Assembly: GCA_964648205.1 (NCBI GenBank)
Contig: CAZYNT010000004.1
Span: 5,588 to 69,587 of the forward strand
Direction of reading: 5' to 3'
Source of the DNA: an uncultured Gammaproteobacteria bacterium
GTDB taxonomy: Bacteria > Patescibacteriota > Patescibacteriia > Patescibacteriales > UBA12465
Length of the DNA: 64,000 bases
A model generated the notes under the pieces. It made no database searches. It was not told where the DNA came from and worked only from the letters and a program-made list of their open reading frames with translations. The translations under genes were made by a program, and so were the position numbers. Shown piece by piece: positions 179 through 55,063 of the stretch (its first letter is position 1; each line of letters begins with the position of its first letter).

Positions 179-1036
179 ATGAATTGGCCTATTATCTTGG
201 CTTTTGGCGCAATGTTCGGTTGGGGATTTGGCGATTTTTTAATCCAAAGAACAATTAAAAAAATCGGCACCATTGAAACCCTATGTTGGATATCTTTATT
301 CAGTTCTATTGTTATTACTCCTTTTGTTTTTAAAGAATTAGGCGGCTTAACTAGTCCCCAACTCATAATTTTAATCGTTCTGGGGGCGGCTAACTTTGCC
401 AGTGGCTTCGTTCATTTCAAGGCTCTTAAAGTTGGCAAACTATCTGTAGTTGAGGTTATTCTGTCAATTGAGATGCCTCTTACTATTCTTTTAGGGTTAA
501 TTGTTTTTAAAGAAGTTTTAAGCGTCTGGCAAATAATTCTGATTATCTTATTATTCCTAGGCATCGTCCTAATTTCCGTCGACCCAGAAAAAATACATCG
601 CAAAGACTTTCTCGAGAAAGGGGCTTTTCTGGCCGTTCTATCCGGAGTTCTAGTGGCTTTAGTTAATTTCGGCAGCGCTTCGCAAGCAAAGGCACTTAGC
701 CCTTTAATGGCCATCTGGATACCTTGGTTTGTTTGCGGTCTAATCTGTTTTGCTCATATTAGCCGCAAACGCCTAAATAATTTCATTAGTTCGAGCCGAA
801 AAAATTGGCGCTTAGTTTCAATTATGATGTTAGTGGATTTATTCGCCTGGACTTCTTATGTCTTTGCGGTCGCGAAAGAGGAGCTAGCCATTACCATTGC
901 TATTACGGAAAGCTACGTCGTTATCGCCCTGATTCTTGGAGTAATAGTAAATAGGGAAAAAATAAAAAAGATTCAATATTTTGGAGCGGCTATAGCCGTT
1001 ATCTGTAGTTTGTTAATTGGTTTAAATAGTAAATAA
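179..1036 (+). CDS. EamA/DMT-family transporter (10 predicted TM helices)
   Basis: 285-aa very hydrophobic ORF with two-fold internal repeat architecture. The N-terminus FGAMFGWGFGDFLIQ is typical of EamA-like permeases. ATG lies 3 nt after the uvrA stop. Confidence 0.7.
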   Translation: MNWPIILAFGAMFGWGFGDFLIQRTIKKIGTIETLCWISLFSSIVITPFVFKELGGLTSPQLIILIVLGAANFASGFVHFKALKVGKLSVVEVILSIEMPLTILLGLIVFKEVLSVWQIILIILLFLGIVLISVDPEKIHRKDFLEKGAFLAVLSGVLVALVNFGSASQAKALSPLMAIWIPWFVCGLICFAHISRKRLNNFISSSRKNWRLVSIMMLVDLFAWTSYVFAVAKEELAITIAITESYVVIALILGVIVNREKIKKIQYFGAAIAVICSLLIGLNSK

Positions 1037-1312
1037 AAAAAACCGAGAAAAACAAGCAGCCGTTAACTGTCAGTTGGTCGACAATCACATACTTGATTTT
1101 TCTCGGTCTTTAGCCCATTTAGACAGTGACCCTTCAGGGTCGCAGGGATTTTTCCGGAGGCATATGGCTCGGGATAAAAATACACCTAATTAAGTCTTGG
1201 TGGACGGGTCCATTAGCGTCCCTCTGGGGACTTGATTAAAGGACGGGTAATACAAGCATTGGTCGGCACAGGCAGCCTTTCGGCCTTATGATTCAGCACC
1301 GAAACCAACAAC
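1037..1312 (-). ncRNA. Candidate structured small RNA of unknown class (about 275 nt)
   Basis: The 366-nt gap has no credible ORF on either strand. A minus-strand promoter-like element lies at 1316-1343. At the 3' end, a 15-bp stem (ACCGAGAAAAA-U-CAAG / CUUGUUUUUCUCGGU, about 1042-1107) is followed by U8 on the minus strand. Internal hairpins: GGCC-GAAA-GGCU (1274-1285), GUCCC-CAGA-GGGAC (1218-1231), GACCC-UGAA-GGGUC (1128-1141). Confidence 0.3.
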
Positions 1313-1315
1313 GCC

Positions 1316-1343
1316 AGCTTATCATTATTCATATTTATGTCAA
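1316..1343 (-). promoter_or_regulatory. Sigma70-like promoter for the candidate RNA
   Basis: Minus strand reads TTGACA (1343-1338), 16-nt spacer ending in TGa, then TAAGCT (1321-1316). This is an extended -10 type. Confidence 0.35.
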
Positions 1344-1402
1344 TATTAAAGAAAAAAAGTTTTCCACAAGAGGGTTTAAAGTAGATTTAAAAAAATATTT
1401 AC

Positions 1403-2584
1403 ATGATTTCAAAGTTAAAAAACAAACTCAAAACAGTCCCTAAGAAACCGGGCGTTTACTTCTGGCTCGATAAGCGCGGGAAAGTTTTGTATGTAGGCCG
1501 AGCAACTAAGCTGAAGAATCGATTGAGCCAATATTTTCAAAAAAATATTTCTCCTCGAATCGCGGAAATGGTTATGGCCGCAAACGATATTCGCTATGAA
1601 GTCACTGACACTCTATTAGAAGCGATAATTTTAGAGGCCAAAAATATAAAAAAGTTTTGGCCTAAATATAACATTGTTGATCGCGATGACCGTTCTTTTA
1701 TTTATGTTGTTATCCCCAAAATTCAGTTTGCTAGGCCGCTGATAGTCAGAGCGACTGATTTAAAAAAATTTCCTAAAACAAAATTTAAAGTCTTCGGCCC
1801 CTACCAGTCCTTTTATCTACTCCAAAATGCCCTCCGCTTAATCCGCCGCATCTTCCCGTATAGTAATTGCCAGCCGCATAGCGGTAAAGCCTGCTTTGAT
1901 TATCAGATCGGACTTTGCCCGGGCGCCTGCATCGATGCTATTTCCGCCCGCGATTACCAAAAGAATATTAACAATATTAGCTTGCTTTTAGCCGGAGAAA
2001 AGAAACGTCTCTTGGTGCGGCTCATAAAAGACAACCCAGATAAAATTAAGGCCTTAAAACATATCCAAGACGTTTCGCTTTTAACCCGAGAAGATAGTTT
2101 AAGTGAAATAAAAGTTAACCGCCTAGAAGGTTATGATATTTCTCATTACCAAGGAAAAGAAAGCTACGGCTCAATGGTTGTTTTTGAAAACGGGGAAGCG
2201 AATAGAAACGAATACCGTTTATTTAAAATAAAAGAAGCGCCGGGCGGAGATGATGAGCGCTCTCTTCAAGAAGTTTTACTAAGACGCTTTAAACATACCG
2301 AATGGGTGTTACCGGAAATTATCATGATTGACGGCGGTTCGCCGCAAATCAGCTTCTTATCTAAAATTTTCCAAACTAATAATATAAATATTCCTTTGGT
2401 TGGTATTTCAAAATTTAGCGGCGACAAGCTGGTTTTTGCGCCAAAAACCAAAAAAGAAATTAGAGATTTGGCCGACAACATTAAGCCGACTCTTCTTAAA
2501 CTCAGGGAAGAGGCGCATCGTTTTGCTAATTACGGCCGGAAACGGGCGCGCGTTGGAGTTAAAGCGCTTGACAAAATTAATTAA
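1403..2584 (+). CDS. uvrC: Compact excinuclease ABC subunit C (GIY-YIG plus RNase-H-like endonuclease domain; no C-terminal HhH2)
   Basis: N-terminal GIY-YIG (GVYFWLDKRGKVLYVGRATKLKNRLSQYF), Cys-containing central region (CFDYQIGLCPGAC) and the UvrC endonuclease core (EGYDISHYQG, MIDGGSPQ, EEAHRFA). Only 393 aa. Confidence 0.75.
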   Translation: MISKLKNKLKTVPKKPGVYFWLDKRGKVLYVGRATKLKNRLSQYFQKNISPRIAEMVMAANDIRYEVTDTLLEAIILEAKNIKKFWPKYNIVDRDDRSFIYVVIPKIQFARPLIVRATDLKKFPKTKFKVFGPYQSFYLLQNALRLIRRIFPYSNCQPHSGKACFDYQIGLCPGACIDAISARDYQKNINNISLLLAGEKKRLLVRLIKDNPDKIKALKHIQDVSLLTREDSLSEIKVNRLEGYDISHYQGKESYGSMVVFENGEANRNEYRLFKIKEAPGGDDERSLQEVLLRRFKHTEWVLPEIIMIDGGSPQISFLSKIFQTNNINIPLVGISKFSGDKLVFAPKTKKEIRDLADNIKPTLLKLREEAHRFANYGRKRARVGVKALDKIN

Positions 2585-2595
2585 TCTGCTAATAT
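2568..2595 (+). promoter_or_regulatory. Promoter of the rplJL operon, inside the uvrC 3' end
   Basis: TTGACA (2568-2573), 16-nt spacer ending TGc, TAATAT (2590-2595). Confidence 0.5.
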
Positions 2596-2601
2596 TCTTA
2601 C

Positions 2602-2726
2602 ATAACTAATATCTACTACCACAGACAGCCAGCCTGGTACTATGTGCCTATAAGTCTTGCCGAGGTAAAAATTCGCTTCTTAAAGCGTTTTCTCGTCTGT
2701 GGTAACACAGATTTTTTTGTATCAAT
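2602..2726 (+). promoter_or_regulatory. Ribosomal protein L10 leader-like attenuator
   Basis: A long-range helix pairs ACCACAGAC (2618-2626) with GUCUGUGGU (2695-2703). Its 3' strand overlaps an intrinsic terminator, UCUGUG-GUAA-CACAGA plus U7 (2696-2718), which sits immediately upstream of rplJ. Confidence 0.5.
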
Positions 2727-3257
2727 ATGCCAAAAAATAAAATTCAAAAAGGAGAAATTCTACGTAATTTAAGAGAAAAAATTAAAAAATCAAAATCGGT
2801 TGTCTTTGCCGGCTTTAATGCTTTGACAGTTAAAGACAATGAAAATCTGCGCGCTCAACTCAGAAAAGAAAATAGCGAATACTATGTCGCCAAGAAGACT
2901 TTAATGAATATCGCCTTCAAGGATCAAATCAAAGATTTAAATGTCCGCGATATGGACGGCAAGTTGGCTGCGGTTTTCTCTTATGAAGATGAAGTCGCGC
3001 CGGCAAAAATTCTAGGCAACTTCCGCAAAGATAAAGAAAAGGCCACTAAGGTATTTTTCTTGGGCGGTATTTTGGAAAATAAATTATTATCCAAACAAGA
3101 AGTTGAAGCCTTATCTCAATTACCAAGCAAGACTGAATTATATGCCAAATTAGTTGGTTCATTGAACGCGCCAATCTCTGGCTTCGTTAACGCGCTCGCT
3201 GGCAACTTGAAAAATTTGGTCTACGTTTTAAAAGCGATCGAGGAAAAGAAAGCTTAA
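2727..3257 (+). CDS. rplJ: 50S ribosomal protein L10
   Basis: 176 aa, directly upstream of rplL. Typical L10 N-terminal region (KSKSVVFAGFNALTVKDNENLRAQLR). Confidence 0.9.
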   Translation: MPKNKIQKGEILRNLREKIKKSKSVVFAGFNALTVKDNENLRAQLRKENSEYYVAKKTLMNIAFKDQIKDLNVRDMDGKLAAVFSYEDEVAPAKILGNFRKDKEKATKVFFLGGILENKLLSKQEVEALSQLPSKTELYAKLVGSLNAPISGFVNALAGNLKNLVYVLKAIEEKKA

Positions 3258-3293
3258 GTATAATAAATAATTAAAATAATTAATTTTAAATCT

Positions 3294-3689
3294 ATGGAAG
3301 AAAAAAATGTTGTTGTACCGGCTAAATTTGAAAAGCTGGTCGGCGAAATCGAAAAAATGAGCGTTCTAGATTTAGCAGAACTCGTTAAAATCTTGGAAGA
3401 AAAATTCGGCGTCAGCGCCTCTGCTCCGGCCATGATGATGGCTCCGGGTGCGGCGGCCGCGGCTCCGGTTGAAGAAAAAGATAGCTTCGACGTTGAAATT
3501 ACCGATGGCGGCGCTAGCAAAATCAATGTTATCAAGGCTGTCCGCGAACTGACGGAAATGGGATTAAAAGAAGCCAAAGACTTAGTCGATGGCGCTCCTA
3601 AGGTTCTAAAGGAAGGTGTTAAAAAAGCCGATGCTGAAGCTATGAAAAAGAAATTAGAAGAAGCGGGTGCTAAAGTAACTCTAAAGTAA
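3294..3689 (+). CDS. rplL: 50S ribosomal protein L7/L12
   Basis: 131 aa with an Ala/Pro hinge ([18 protein letters not shown]) and the conserved C-terminal domain ([34 protein letters not shown]). Confidence 0.95.
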
Positions 3690-50913: not shown

Positions 50914-51099
50914 ATGAACAAACTAACTAATTACATCAAAGAGTCTGTAGCCGAGATGAAAAAAGTTACCTGGCCGTCCAAGAAAGAAACCCGCAACTAT
51001 ACCCTTTTGGTCATCGGTATTAGCATCGGCGTGGCCCTATTCCTGGGTCTTTTGGATTATATTTTCACTACAGGTTTCCAACTTATTATTAATAAATAA
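50914..51099 (+). CDS. secE: Preprotein translocase subunit SecE
   Basis: 61 aa: NYIKESVAEMKKVTWPSKKETRNYTLLVIGISIGVALFLGLLD. Position upstream of nusG. The track start at 50875 is GTG inside the leader hairpin. Confidence 0.8.
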   Translation: MNKLTNYIKESVAEMKKVTWPSKKETRNYTLLVIGISIGVALFLGLLDYIFTTGFQLIINK

Positions 51100-51129
51100 T
51101 AAAATCAATCGTTCTTAAATTTTAAATTT

Positions 51130-51675
51130 ATGGCCAAGCAACTATTAAATCAAGGCCGACGCTGGTACGTTATCCATACTTATTCCGGATACGAAGAGAA
51201 TGTCGCGCAAAATCTCAAACAAAGAGTTGAATCTTTGGATATGGAAGACAAAATCTTCAACATTTTAATCCCCACCGAAAAAAAAATTAAAATAAAAAAC
51301 GGCAAGCGCAAAGTGACTGAAGAAAAAATCTTCCCCGGATATATTCTGGTCGAAATGATGGTTACGGACGAATCCTGGTATATTGTCCGCAACACCCCGA
51401 ATGTGACGGGCTTCATCGGCACCGGCACCATCCCGACCCCGATCGGCGAGGAAGAGGTCAAGGCGCTGCAGAAAAGAATGGGCGTCGAAGATCCTAAATT
51501 CCAAATTGATGTCATTATCGGCAGCCCGGTTAGAATCAACGAAGGGCCATTTAAGAATATGGAAGGTAAAGTGACAGCAGTTGACGAGGCTAAAGGCAAA
51601 GTCAAAGTTTCCGTTTCCCTCTTCGGGCGTGAAACGCCGGTTGAACTTGATTTTTTACAGATTAAAAAAGTCTAA
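51130..51675 (+). CDS. nusG: Transcription termination/antitermination factor NusG
   Basis: RWYVIHTYSGYEENV, FPGYILVEM, and a KOW motif (GSPVRINEGPFKNMEGKV). Confidence 0.95.
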   Translation: MAKQLLNQGRRWYVIHTYSGYEENVAQNLKQRVESLDMEDKIFNILIPTEKKIKIKNGKRKVTEEKIFPGYILVEMMVTDESWYIVRNTPNVTGFIGTGTIPTPIGEEEVKALQKRMGVEDPKFQIDVIIGSPVRINEGPFKNMEGKVTAVDEAKGKVKVSVSLFGRETPVELDFLQIKKV

Positions 51676-51717
51676 TGAAAAAAGGGCGATGCTTCTGCGC
51701 TCTCAATTAATAACTAT

Positions 51718-52140
51718 ATGGCAAAAAAAATAAAGACAAAAGTTAAATTACAAATCGCCGGCGGCCAGGCTAACCCCGCCCCTCCAGTCGGTCCGGCTTT
51801 AGGCCAGCACGGTTTGAATATCGCTGAATTCTGCAAAAACTTCAATGATAAAACTAAAGATAAGATGGGTGATATTATCCCCGTTGAAATTACTGTTTAC
51901 GAAGACAGAAGTTATGATTTTATCCTTAAAACCTCTCCGGCTTCAGAATTAATTAAAAAAGCGGCCGGTATTAAAAAGGGGTCAGGTAAACCCTTAACCG
52001 AAAAGGTTGGTTCTATTACTAAAGCCCAGCTTGAAGAAATTGCGAAGAAAAAAATGCCTGATTTGAACGCCAATGATTTAGAGGCCGCTAAAAATATTAT
52101 AGCGGGTACGGCGCGCCAAATGGGAGTAGATATTAAATAA
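51718..52140 (+). CDS. rplK: 50S ribosomal protein L11
   Basis: [34 protein letters not shown] is canonical L11. Confidence 0.95.
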
Positions 52141-52145
52141 TAATT

Positions 52146-52178
52146 GTGGGAGTTCGCCTTGAGCGGACGCTTAACCAC
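52146..52178 (+). promoter_or_regulatory. Candidate L1-binding operator (23S rRNA L1-stalk mimic) upstream of rplA
   Basis: GUGGGAG-[GUUCGC-CUUGA-GCGGAC hairpin]-GCUUAACCAC. It resembles the rRNA L1-stalk element GGUGGGAG...AAAUACCACC. Located 12 nt upstream of the rplA ATG. Confidence 0.45.
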
Positions 52179-52189
52179 GAAAAAAAACT

Positions 52190-52930
52190 ATGGCTAAAAA
52201 AGAAGAAGCCCCAAAAACGGCTAAAAAAACCAGCAAGAAAGAAATAAAAAAAGTTAAAACCATAAAAAAGGTTGATAATTCGGCAATTTACGATCGTCTA
52301 AAAACTTACTCTATTGAAGAGGCTTTAGAAATCGTTAAGAAATTAACCAAGACTAAATTTGATGCTTCGGTCGAAGTCCATTTCCGCCTTGGCATCAATA
52401 CTAAAAAGGGCGATCAGCAAGTTCGCGGCGCGGTCAGCCTGCCTAACGGCACCGGCAAAACCGTTAAGGTGGCCGCCTTTGTGTCCTCTGAGAATGAGAA
52501 AGCAGCTAAAGCGGCCGGCGCTGATTTCGTCGGCGGCGATGAATTAATCGCGGAGATCAAAAAAACGGAAAAAACTGATTTCCAGGTGGCGATCGCCGAA
52601 CCGGCTTTAATGAAAAATTTAGCGGTTATCGCTAAAATCCTCGGTACGCGCGGCTTAATGCCTTCCCCGAAAAACGACACCGTGACCACCAATCCGGCAA
52701 AAACCGTCGAGGAATTAAAGAAGGGTAAAATCAGCTTCAAGAATGATGATACGGCTAATGTTCATACCGTCATCGGCAAGGCCAGCTTCGACACCAAAAA
52801 GTTAATCGAAAATTACCAGGCTCTGCTTGAAACCATCAAGAAAGCGAAACCCGCCTCTTCCAAGGGAACATTCATCAAAAATATCAGCGTTTCCTCATCG
52901 ATGAGCGCCGGCGTAAAAGTGGCTCTATAA
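52190..52930 (+). CDS. rplA: 50S ribosomal protein L1 with a Lys-rich N-terminal extension
   Basis: FDASVEVHFRLGINTKKGDQQVRGAVSLPNGTGK and GTRGLMPSPK are canonical L1 segments. Confidence 0.95.
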   Translation: MAKKEEAPKTAKKTSKKEIKKVKTIKKVDNSAIYDRLKTYSIEEALEIVKKLTKTKFDASVEVHFRLGINTKKGDQQVRGAVSLPNGTGKTVKVAAFVSSENEKAAKAAGADFVGGDELIAEIKKTEKTDFQVAIAEPALMKNLAVIAKILGTRGLMPSPKNDTVTTNPAKTVEELKKGKISFKNDDTANVHTVIGKASFDTKKLIENYQALLETIKKAKPASSKGTFIKNISVSSSMSAGVKVAL

Positions 52931-54777: not shown

Positions 54778-55035
54778 ATGAAAAAGTTATTTGTCGGCGG
54801 CTTGTCCTTCAAGACGACCGAACAAGGTTTAGCGGATGCTTTCGCTAAAGCTGGTACTGTTTTATCCGCTGTTATCATTACTGATCGCATGACCCATCGC
54901 TCCAAAGGCTTTGGTTTCGTCGAGATGGAAAATGACGCTGATGCAGACAATGCCATCGCCATGTATAACAACCAGGAATTAGACGGACGCAAAGTCGTTG
55001 TCAACGAAGCTCGTCCTCTAGAAAAGAGATTCTAA
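54778..55035 (+). CDS. RRM-type RNA-binding protein
   Basis: RNP2 (KLFVGGL) and RNP1 (KGFGFVEM). 85 aa. Confidence 0.85.
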   Translation: MKKLFVGGLSFKTTEQGLADAFAKAGTVLSAVIITDRMTHRSKGFGFVEMENDADADNAIAMYNNQELDGRKVVVNEARPLEKRF

Positions 55036-55063
55036 TAAATCTTATTTCGATTGAAAATACAAA

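Follow-up and report, generated by a model that had tools for sequence, protein, structure and literature searches.

We find that the minus strand of the window (the whole 64,000-nucleotide stretch of DNA that was analysed) very probably carries, at approximately positions 1309-1035, a real and conserved gene for a structured non-coding RNA of an uncatalogued family. The RNA superfamily to which it belongs is previously undescribed and, as sampled, is confined to a Falkowbacteria-like branch of the Patescibacteria; the organism itself is a patescibacterium related closely to Candidatus Falkowbacteria. To our knowledge, almost nothing is known about the non-coding RNAs of the Candidate Phyla Radiation (CPR), and this one is strongly promoted and intricately folded, lacks a counterpart in Rfam, is found clade-wide, and occurs as paralogs, some of them in tandem, with fixed non-canonical positions. 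We suggest, in addition, that its transcript contains a boxA-like signal and that its core may be part of a ribonucleoprotein (RNP); the complete statement, in which the gene is taken together with both of these readings, is in our judgment fairly likely.

The gene lies in a gap of 366 nt between EamA, whose TAA stop codon is at 1034-1036, and uvrC, whose ATG is at 1403; this gap holds short open reading frames (ORFs) only. An initial annotation had interpreted this region as a stand-alone structured RNA of unknown class that is bounded by a promoter and a terminator, and our analysis supports that interpretation. The features that we assign are the following.

1338-1343, minus strand: -35 hexamer TTGACA, read in the sequence and kept in the orthologs and in nearly all related units
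1316-1324, minus strand: extended -10 element TGaTAAGCT (TGa at 1324-1322, hexamer TAAGCT at 1321-1316), separated from the -35 hexamer by a 16-nt spacer
1035-1309, minus strand: predicted transcript of ~275 nt, both ends predicted, with the start placed ~7 nt past the -10 element and the end placed in the U-run
1258-1309, minus strand: 5' hairpin domain (MFE structure), in which GUUGGU..CGGUGC pairs with GUGCCGACCAAU, capped by GGCC-GAAA-GGCU at 1285-1274
1232-1244, minus strand: boxA-like motif M1, GUCCUUUAAUCAA; relatives have GUUCUUU(A/U)A.. at the equivalent place
1218-1231, minus strand: hairpin H2, GUCCC-CAGA-GGGAC, which covaries and appears in the single-sequence folds of all 13 members
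1113-1205, minus strand: three-way-junction domain (MFE structure, RNAalifold for the window type, register of model R2)
1205-1201 with 1117-1113, minus strand: closing helix H3a, GUCCA / UGGGC
1197-1194 with 1124-1121, minus strand: closing helix H3b, AGAC / GUCU
1181-1176 with 1153-1148, minus strand: junction arm 1, helix H6, AUUUUU / AAAAAU, stacked on P5
1154-1173, minus strand: helix P5, CCCGAG (1173-1168) / CUCCGG (1159-1154), with a C.C mismatch at the third position
1141-1128, minus strand: junction arm 2, hairpin H5, GACCC-UGAA-GGGUC
1035-1112, minus strand: linker UAAAGA (1112-1107), terminator hairpin and U8 (sequence reading and MFE structure)
1357-1368, minus strand: TGTGGAAAACTT, probable vestige of an ogt/MGMT-like gene, from its 5' end (by-eye alignment with loci L001, L015 and L148); context, outside the RNA

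As judged from its sequence, the promoter is of the sigma-70 type with an extended -10 element. The arrangement TTGACA-16-TGaTAAGCT, which had been proposed for the minus strand, is indeed present there and is kept in the orthologs: TTGACA-N16-TGnTAAGCT is common to the window and to loci L064, L065, L069, L144 and L146, the extended -10 element being identical to that of the window in L064 and reading TGCTAAGCT in the other four, and the looser pattern TTGACA-N16-18-TAnnnT is seen in nearly every related unit. The window -10 element falls below the threshold of a consensus scan because only three of its six positions match TATAAT. At the other end of the gene, the base of the terminator is formed by CCGAGAAAAA (1106-1097) pairing with UUUUUCUCGG (1052-1043), giving a hairpin of ~70 nt that is followed by U8 at 1042-1035, a run that shares 2 nt with the EamA stop codon. 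A U-tract follows the hairpin on the RNA (minus) strand only, the plus strand having just UCUUU at that place. Of the 15-bp stem and U8 claimed previously, the U8 is exact and the stem length is approximate, corresponding to the basal run of the MFE structure if A-U and G-U pairs to the tail are included. The terminator was missed by the scan tool because that program accepts only loops of 3-8 nt. Like intrinsic (Rho-independent) terminators, the element has a G+C-containing stem followed by U8 and is located between convergent genes; it differs from them, however, in having a stem-loop of ~70 nt rather than 20-35 nt, and in that the base of the stem (CCGAG/CUCGG) is conserved in sequence and unique to the family. 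All 13 family members have this base unchanged, and within 1.13 Mb of related loci the signature CCGAG..CUCGG-U(n) marks these RNA units and no other place. The reading in which the hairpin serves merely as the eamA terminator was checked and is not upheld, and an RNA with an identical CCGAG/CUCGG terminator base adjoins uvrA, not EamA, in most relatives. The absence of a minus-strand gene downstream, as originally stated, is also borne out, the next gene being convergent in both cases (EamA in the window and uvrA in most relatives).

Folding of the minus strand gives an MFE of -97 kcal/mol compared to -73 +/- 5 kcal/mol for shuffled sequences (z -4.73), with none of 200 shuffles being as good; the z value of the plus strand is -1.66. 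We take the minus-strand gene to be real because its promoter is conserved, because both the U8 and the low z value belong to this strand, because the helices contain G.U pairs (which are A.C on the opposite strand), and because no ORF is conserved. The GAAA-capped hairpin, GUCCC-CAGA-GGGAC, GACCC-UGAA-GGGUC and the 5' helix that had been drawn from the sequence are all present where they were placed. The 5' hairpin is variable in sequence between relatives and is missing from L014 and L016; it is kept by RNAalifold in the window-type alignment despite the differing sequences. Both the MFE and the RNAalifold structures leave the 5' and 3' ends of the RNA unpaired with each other. Two further proposals of the initial annotation did not survive and are chance features. 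A repeated 8-mer, ACCCGUCC, is absent from the orthologs, and 33% of shuffled sequences hold a repeated 8-mer. Similarly, the alternative 3' partner for the 5' helix, GUCGACCAAC, which is located in the loop of the terminator, is seen on reading not to be preserved in L065, L069 or L015.

Orthologs of the RNA were identified by nhmmer in L069, L065 and L064 (E 6e-20 to 5e-17), and syntenic RNA units are present in most loci in which UvrC is at least ~66% identical. These units sit between uvrA (or EamA) and ogt-uvrC, and their sequences diverge fast, with a single architecture being kept that consists of the 5' hairpin, GUYCUUUAA, a small hairpin, the three-way junction and the CCGAG/CUCGG-based terminator. 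In more distant CPR genomes, the RNA is missing from the locus and uvrA is joined directly to uvrC. The window RNA represents one of at least two paralogous types. The window holds one unit at this site, and its nearest relatives (L064, L069 and L146) carry a second type in tandem, downstream. An identical locus is present in the samples from which SRR11845629 and SRR10769896 derive, and orthologs are present in the groundwater and lake samples of Ga0172371, Ga0074199 and SESG01. Scanning viral contigs with the terminator pattern gave two unrelated coding matches only.

Family alignments made with MAFFT were structurally out of register and were replaced by bootstrapping from a single-sequence covariance model; that built from one paralog (L014) matched seven other sequences over their full length, with E values of 1e-20 to 8e-5. 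In the covariance-model alignment of the sister type (A7), 91% of cells pair and 25 of the 34 pairs change on both sides, values reached by none of 500 shuffles, although shuffle statistics overstate significance here in that the alignment was fitted to the tested structure and its members share ancestry. In slid controls, paired cells do not exceed 44% and two-sided pairs do not exceed seven. For the window type, RNAalifold applied to six sequences recovers every hand-drawn helix, and 18 of 64 pairs are compensatory in a sample that amounts to only three independent lineages (window/L064; L065, L069, L144 and L146; and L015). A check of conservation and covariation thus returns orthologs, paralogs, and helices that covary in each type. 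At the level of individual helices, all four pairs of H3a change on both sides in A7, H2 is seen as CCGG/CCGG, CCCC/GGGG, CCCG/CGGG and CCGU/ACGG, and the flanking dinucleotides within P5 covary as CC/GG, GC/GC, CU/AG, GU/AC and UU/AA, with the GAG/CUC portion of P5 and its C.C mismatch being fixed across the family. Besides H2, single-sequence folding recovers the terminator base in 12 of 13 members and H3a in 9 of 13. Positions 1231-1035 of the window contain all of the elements that define the family, namely H2, an H3-closed junction, P5 in the form N1N2-C-GAG / CUC-C-N5'N6', the linker and the CCGAG/CUCGG terminator base. Moreover, model R2, which was built without window-type sequences, aligns window positions 1099-1221 (minus strand) over its full length in the hand-assigned register. 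The match is weak (14 bits, E 0.0012 in 601 nt; E 0.027 for L064a), and the connection of the window type to the sister type, weak by score, rests largely on the shared architecture.

Searching the whole window with Rfam 15 at gathering thresholds gave no match for this RNA, and permissive searches (E<=10, small search space) of window positions 950-1450, L069 positions 1400-2250 and L014 positions 3300-3640 gave junk matches only, so that the earlier assignment to an unknown class holds. ARAGORN reports no tmRNA gene, standard or permuted, in the whole window and 11 related loci. These two programs and reading of the sequence agree with the claim that the cores of RNase P, tmRNA and SRP RNA are not matched. 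For RNase P RNA, there is no Rfam match at E<=10, and the CR-I (GGAAAGUCC) and CR-V (ACAGAA..GGCUUA) motifs are absent on reading; the candidate CR-I at 1233-1226 (AAGUCCCC) is ruled out as being part of a covarying local hairpin and not of a long-range helix. SRP RNA is likewise unmatched at E<=10, and GGAA..GGAAGCAG is absent from the window RNA. We rejected GCUCCACC as the acceptor end of a permuted tmRNA, given that it occurs in only 2 of ~14 relatives, follows a variable hairpin and is accompanied by no T-arm. Rfam model RF00013 for 6S RNA does not match, and the architecture (hairpin, three-way junction, terminal hairpin) has no central-bubble rod. The junction, at ~93-116 nt, was considered as a 5S rRNA, and its GCCGAG loosely recalls GCCGAAC, but RF00001 gave no match in three permissive searches. 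Assignment as a riboswitch, T-box or ribosomal leader was set aside in view of the fact that a convergent gene comes next on that side in every locus, and an anti-terminator role for the internal CCGAG copy, in competition for UUCUCGG, is possible on paper but has no gene downstream on which to act. The second tandem unit was considered as an RNase P RNA or 23S fragment on the strength of GCAACAGAAA in L069b and a sarcin-ricin-like hairpin, AGUAC-GNRA-GGA. Neither an LSU nor an RNase P match was obtained, however, and conservation of the L069b motif does not extend to L064b or L089b. Literature searches on CPR non-coding RNAs gave nothing relevant and no description of this RNA. Taken together, the Rfam searches of the whole window and of the loci of 11 relatives, both at gathering thresholds, and the three permissive ones returned nothing but L10 leaders elsewhere and junk matches of the miRNA/snoRNA type.

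A conserved unpaired segment, M1, invites comparison with boxA, the sequence of which is GCUCUUUAACAA in E. coli. The gamma-proteobacterial boxA consensus is GYTCTTTAANA (PMC5725501). The window copy, GUCCUUUAAUC, matches eight of the ten specified positions of this gamma-proteobacterial consensus, which may not be that of the host; it retains the critical C4 and U6 and departs from the consensus at position 3 (C in place of U) and at position 11. The L014 motif matches at nine of the ten positions, and most relatives keep GUUCUUU, their form of the motif being GUUCUUUAAAUCAA. M1 is unpaired in the RNAalifold consensus, and the window MFE structure pairs part of it. The motif is found 20-160 nt past the -10 element, directly 3' of the 5' hairpin where that hairpin exists, and accompanies 28 of the 55 promoter-like sites of the RNA zone compared to 8 of 132 elsewhere (odds ratio 16, p 2e-11). 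Elsewhere in these genomes, similar motifs are seen just past promoters, in the 5' UTRs of other genes, and a search for 16S sequences that might provide a native boxA found no match in the related loci searched. Given the motif match, its position and its enrichment, we put at about even the chance that GUYCUUUAA is a boxA-like Nus anti-termination signal. In the manner of rRNA leaders, such a site would recruit NusB/NusE and the Nus anti-termination complex to RNA polymerase; the transcript, which is untranslated, would in this way be protected from Rho, and its folding would be co-transcriptional. The arrangement resembles rRNA leaders (boxB hairpin and boxA; NusB/NusE/NusA/NusG/SuhB) and boxA elements outside rRNA, such as that of the E. 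coli suhB 5' UTR, in having a hairpin and then a single-stranded GYUCUUUAA-type motif (GUCCUUUAAUCAA in the window, GUUCUUUAAAUCAA in relatives) near a strong promoter in an untranslated transcript. In contrast to those systems, what follows here is a short RNA of ~200 nt with its own intrinsic terminator rather than an rRNA or mRNA, the window copy has C at position 3, and Nus binding is predicted from sequence. If true, use of boxA and Nus anti-termination for a small stable RNA rather than rRNA would widen the range of this machinery. Two other roles for the motif were considered. That of an anti-Shine-Dalgarno mimic is weakened by the fact that the organism hardly uses Shine-Dalgarno (SD) sequences, and a pseudoknot with the A-rich tail past P5 or with the linker UAAAGA finds no consistent complementarity among relatives, there always being a C.A clash and the motif being too invariant to covary.

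Several other explanations for the locus have to be weighed against these readings. The transcript might be a trans-acting base-pairing sRNA in which single-stranded GUYCUUU is a seed for mRNAs and the remainder is a stabilising scaffold. The fact that the gene stands alone, with a promoter of its own and a U-tailed Rho-independent terminator, an accessible and conserved pyrimidine-rich 7-mer, and tandem paralogs, as in some sRNA families, all speak for this idea, but we consider it unlikely: seed-type sRNAs are not usually as long as 250-450 nt and do not usually contain a covarying three-way junction in which non-canonical positions are fixed, A/U-rich leaders almost without SD sequences mean that the anti-SD-like motif has no obvious target, the complement AAAGAAC is so common in this AT-rich genome that no single target stands out, and the motif fits boxA better (PMC5725501). 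We regard as highly improbable the idea that the RNA is a very divergent 6S, RNase P, SRP, tmRNA or 5S RNA beyond the reach of the Rfam models. Rfam at E<=10 is silent for the window type, the sister type and the tandem unit, as is ARAGORN, there is no P4-type CR-I/CR-V, GGAA/AGCAG SRP motif or central-bubble rod, the 5' and 3' ends are unpaired, and a housekeeping RNA is difficult to reconcile with one or two paralogs per locus and with absence from the locus in more distant CPR. These points have to be set against a strong consensus-like promoter, a suitable length, a high degree of structure, presence at a fixed place across the clade (most loci with UvrC at least ~66% identical) and the general knowledge that CPR RNAs are often atypical.

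It is also conceivable that the DNA acts in cis and the product is irrelevant, the element being either a bidirectional terminator/insulator or a divergent promoter that interferes with ogt-uvrC. The hairpin does abut the stop codon of the convergent gene, the place within the uvrA-ogt-uvrC cluster is conserved, and the -10 region of the RNA, TGATAATATCA, is nearly palindromic in loci with ogt, so that on the opposite strand it gives an extended -10 element 27 nt upstream of the ogt ATG and the two promoters may overlap. However, a terminator or a promoter would not require internal helices that covary over approximately 200 nt and contain fixed mismatches, UCUUU is all that follows the hairpin on the plus strand, which folds no better than shuffles, and more distant CPR join uvrA to uvrC without such an element, all of which makes a purely cis-acting role very unlikely. 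Finally, a small-protein gene is hardly credible. There is a 40-aa ORF with a GTG start (1185-1063) in the RNA sense, together with two that start with TTG, but the frame, position and length of the ORF vary among orthologs (49 aa in L065 versus 12 aa in L144) and substitutions track base-pairing, not codons. Among the orthologs compared, none of the RNA-sense ORFs is shared, which agrees with the earlier view that the 366-nt gap has no plausible ORF.

Our best guess, which we offer tentatively, is that the conserved core is a stable protein-binding (RNP) RNA, and the two CCGAG-type helices would then be likely protein contact sites. A more elaborate and distinctly unlikely version has the window RNA and the tandem paralogs as RNA subunits of a Patescibacteria-specific RNP or ribozyme whose synthesis is wired into an rRNA-type Nus anti-termination/chaperone pathway. 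Under this version, the RNA might be associated with ribosomes or their biogenesis and compensate for components that are missing in reduced genomes, or it might be the RNA partner of the flanking nucleotide-excision-repair genes. Among the closest parallels are raiA, ROOL, GOLLD, OLE and HEARO, which share with it a narrow range, a stand-alone gene, a covarying multi-helix fold, conserved unpaired nucleotides and the lack of a known function. In contrast to these RNAs, which it matches in neither sequence nor structure, the window RNA occurs in another host phylum and carries a boxA-like leader; it is also smaller than ROOL, GOLLD and OLE. It is similar to 6S RNA, CsrB and Y RNA in being stand-alone, strongly promoted, probably stable and sometimes present as two paralogs (Bacillus, for example, carries two 6S paralogs, 6S-1 and 6S-2), but it has no central-bubble rod, GGA repeats or Ro-binding stem, and the respective Rfam models are silent.

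The analysis provides a resource for the family, consisting of the inferred ends, models of secondary structure and covariance, and over 20 sequences, which enables metatranscriptome mining, structure probing and pull-downs in organisms that have not yet been grown alone. With respect to the genomic context, nusG was identified in the window. In the relatives, the ogt/MGMT-like gene is located between the RNA promoter and uvrC, and the 12-mer TGTGGAAAACTT is, in L001, L015 and L148, the start of a 105-aa DNA_binding_1 (PF01035) gene.

From the stop codon of an EamA transporter gene to the ATG of uvrC runs a gap of 366 nt with no credible ORF, and on its minus strand (~1309-1035) lies a genuine gene for a conserved and structured non-coding RNA, the window RNA. 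The promoter, hairpins and terminator that the initial annotation listed on this strand are each present on reading the sequence, and the locus is laid out as follows:

179-1036, plus strand: EamA transporter gene, which ends the gap on one side
1403-2584, plus strand: short uvrC gene (GIY-YIG and RNase H-like domains), ATG at 1403
1343-1338, minus strand: -35 element TTGACA, followed by a 16-nt spacer
1321-1316, minus strand: -10 element TAAGCT, with TGa directly before it
1309-1258, minus strand: 5' helix with the cap GGCC-GAAA-GGCU
1231-1218, minus strand: hairpin GUCCC-CAGA-GGGAC
1141-1128, minus strand: hairpin GACCC-UGAA-GGGUC
1042-1035, minus strand: U8 run, after a terminator hairpin of ~70 nt with the base CCGAGAAAAA/UUUUUCUCGG

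The U8 run and the EamA stop codon share two bases. A consensus scanner reported neither the promoter, because its -10 element matches at just three of six positions, nor the terminator, whose loop exceeds the length that the scanner's rule allows; both signals are kept in relatives. The minus strand folds at -97 kcal/mol (z = -4.73), a stability equalled by none of 200 shuffles, compared with a z of only -1.66 for the plus strand. A repeated 8-mer and an alternative 3' partner for the 5' helix, also noted at the outset, are chance features.

The source organism is a Patescibacteria (CPR) bacterium near Candidatus Falkowbacteria; its UvrC, which has 393 aa and Pfam matches to the GIY-YIG and RNase H-like domains only, shares 86-92% identity with proteins of MAGs that bear these labels. 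Relatives were sampled from 143 uvrC loci in genomes and metagenomes (handles of the form L064), with five more obtained by exact-protein look-up. By plain sequence similarity, the window RNA picks up close orthologs only (L069, L065 and L064, at E values of 6e-20 to 5e-17), L015 being a weak match. Almost all loci with a UvrC at least ~66% identical carry at least one RNA unit upstream of, and divergent from, uvrC, made up of a TTGACA-N16-18-TAnnnT promoter, a stretch of 150-450 nt in which no ORF is conserved, a hairpin and a T-run. Most often, uvrA (838 aa) is followed by one or more RNA units on the opposite strand, an ogt-like gene (PF01035), uvrC, rplJ and rplL. In the window, EamA takes the uvrA position and ogt has been lost, except that 12 nt of its start (TGTGGAAAACTT, ~1368-1357) survive beside the RNA promoter; in more distant CPR, uvrA is joined directly to uvrC and the RNA unit is absent.

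Thirteen units follow one common plan, comprising a variable 5' hairpin (missing from L014 and L016), the motif M1 (consensus GUYCUUU(A/U)A), hairpin H2, a three-way junction closed by the long-range helix H3, a linker of 5-7 nt and the terminator. One junction arm is made up of H6, helix P5 and a variable insertion, and the other is hairpin H5. The long terminator has the base CCGAG/CUCGG in 13/13 units, and the signature CCGAG..CUCGG-U(n), counted across the window and 1.13 Mb of related loci, has 24 occurrences, all of them at these RNA units. P5 is the most telling element of the shared fold. It takes the form N1N2-C-GAG ... CUC-C-N5'N6', in which the outer two pairs covary (CC/GG, GC/GC, CU/AG, GU/AC, UU/AA); GAG/CUC and the C.C mismatch never change. 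L065 and L069 have C-G in place of A-U.

Because the helices were drawn by hand, they were checked in three independent ways. Single-sequence folding recovers H2 in 13/13 units, H3a in 9/13, the terminator base in 12/13 and H5 in 8/11. A covariance model built from L014 alone, with its hand-drawn structure, finds seven other units at full length (E 1e-20 to 8e-5). In the covariance-model alignment, which is fitted to the model under test and holds related sequences, 91% of cells pair, both partners change in 25 of 34 pairs, and the covariation score is 0.605 versus 0.239 in shuffles (0/500 reach 0.605); sliding the partner by 1-3 columns leaves pairing at ≤44% and at most seven pairs changed on both sides. 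Given six window-type sequences in a plain MAFFT alignment, RNAalifold predicts a fold with the 5' hairpin, H2, H3a, H3b, H6, P5 (skipping C.C) and the long terminator, with 18 of 64 pairs compensatory. Orthologs and covariation in related intergenic regions thus bear out the structured RNA first proposed.

Rfam 15 gives no match at gathering thresholds in the entire 64-kb window and, at E≤10, only junk matches to window 950-1450 (miRNA and sRNA types), to the ortholog L069 with its tandem neighbour, and to the paralog L014. ARAGORN detects no tRNA or tmRNA in the window and 11 related loci, and the CPR/Patescibacteria ncRNA literature searched contains nothing relevant to the window RNA. With no confident match to a known family, the initial description of its class as unknown stands. 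The family is absent from Rfam and from the literature searched and is confined, in the sample taken, to a CPR clade. It belongs, as a new family, among the orphan structured ncRNAs of bacteria, a general kind that is already familiar.

A second covariance model, R2, built from eight units of the L014 group, gives stronger matches to second tandem units, in their 3' half, than to the window-type units of the same loci (E 4e-8 against 0.027 in L064, and 5.5e-7 against 0.84 in L069). With filters off, R2 aligns at full length to window 1099-1221 (minus strand) with 14 bits, in the register assigned by hand. The units thus fall into two paralogous types: the window RNA belongs with L064a, L065, L069a, L144, L146a and L015a (a denoting the first tandem unit), and its sister type consists of the L014 group plus the 3' domain found in the ~430-nt second unit. 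L064 is the closest relative, and there uvrC is followed by the window-type unit, the second unit and then EamA; in the window the first-unit terminator runs directly into the sequence that follows the second-unit terminator in L064. We infer that the second unit was lost from the window, this junction being consistent with recombination between two similar terminators.

The ~430-nt second unit extends from promoter to terminator in tandem downstream of the window-type RNA in L064 (~2050-1560, minus strand), L069 (1884-1446, minus strand) and L146; related units occur in L015 and L089, and none in the window. Its 5' half contains a hairpin, AGUAC-GNRA-GGA(A/C)C, that resembles the sarcin-ricin/bulged-G motif. 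In further lineages of the clade, different promoter/boxA-like/terminator units lie on the minus strand upstream of uvrC, at the same uvrA-uvrC position (L003, L005, L068 and L147, second unit; L017, L019-L022), and neither model detects these at E≤1. This position looks like an island of ncRNA genes.

The sequence of M1 is GUCCUUUAAUCAA in the window and GUUCUUUAAAUCAA in L014, and second units have GUUCUUUGCCAUAG or GCUCUUUGACAG; the rrn boxA of E. coli is UGCUCUUUAACAA. The motif matches the core of the boxA consensus GYTCTTTAANA, in which C4 and U6 are critical (PMC5725501), this consensus being that of gamma-proteobacteria. The window copy departs from it at position 3. A universal Mycoplasma primer, GTTCTTTGAAAACTGAAT (PMC3019172), has the same core as M1. 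M1 lies directly 3' of the 5' hairpin and is unpaired in the consensus fold, an order of hairpin then motif like that of boxB-boxA in rrn leaders. The target of the Mycoplasma primer is presumably the 16S-23S spacer. A boxA core lies within 170 nt of 28/55 distinct promoter-like sites in the RNA zone versus 8/132 elsewhere (odds ratio 16, p 2e-11; background expectation 0.07 per 170 nt). On the strength of the motif match, its position and this enrichment we propose a boxA-like role: the window RNA probably carries an rRNA-style anti-termination leader, in which M1 would recruit NusB/NusE and so allow the untranslated RNA to be transcribed to its end and to fold correctly. CPR RNA biology is nearly blank, and this boxA link is directly testable.

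M1 might instead act as an sRNA seed, which is possible, but the organism has almost no Shine-Dalgarno sequences to target. The fold, with its many fixed unpaired A-rich segments, its unchanging C.C mismatch and its two copies of the CCGAG helix motif, resembles that of a stable RNA, protein-binding or tertiary-structured, more than that of a seed-type sRNA. It may have a cis role in addition, as a terminator or through promoter interference with ogt-uvrC, although such a role cannot account for ~200 nt of covarying structure. Comparison of orthologs reveals no conserved ORF in the RNA sense.

Boxes resembling boxA also occur elsewhere. On the minus strand of L012 (~8254), L028 (~8022), L088 (~4518) and L045 (~8125), GTTCTTTAAAAA(A)TTAA or a variant (GTCCTTTTGAAAAATTAA in L028, GTTCATTTAAAAATTGGA in L045) stands in the 5' UTR of a gene for a HAD-family phosphatase-like protein (FDFDGVLVDS motif), with a promoter-like site 10-31 nt before it, recalling the autoregulatory boxA of E. 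coli suhB. In the window, the secE-nusG-rplK-rplA cluster (50915-52930, plus strand), unlinked from rplJ-rplL (2727-3689), has AAUCGUUCUUAAAUUUU, one U short of a boxA-like core, in the 30-nt secE-nusG spacer right before nusG.

In L001, L002 and L004 the extended -10 of the RNA, TGATAATATCA, is nearly palindromic and lies ~27 nt upstream of the ogt ATG; its opposite strand, TGATATTAT, overlaps the RNA promoter and is possibly an extended -10 for ogt-uvrC. In the window this symmetry is gone, as is ogt; the copy there reads TGATAAGCT. A promoter-like site, TTGACAAAATTAATTAATCTGCTAATAT, lies at the uvrC end before rplJ (2568-2726, plus strand), and Rfam matches an L10 leader in L028 and L045, with none in the window. 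UvrC is usually ~600 aa long, and nucleotide excision repair proteins are short in this clade (UvrC, 393 aa at window 1403-2584, plus strand; UvrA, 838-846 aa in L144-L147). Of 56 ORF starts inspected in the window, nearly all are A/T-rich upstream and lack a GGAGG-type Shine-Dalgarno sequence, clear exceptions being 15898, 41902 and 53098. Finally, an unlisted small ORF of ~85 aa at 54780-55037 (plus strand), MKKLFVGGLSFKTTEQGL...KGFGFVEM..., resembles an RRM-type RNA-binding protein and explains an apparent 531-nt gap there.
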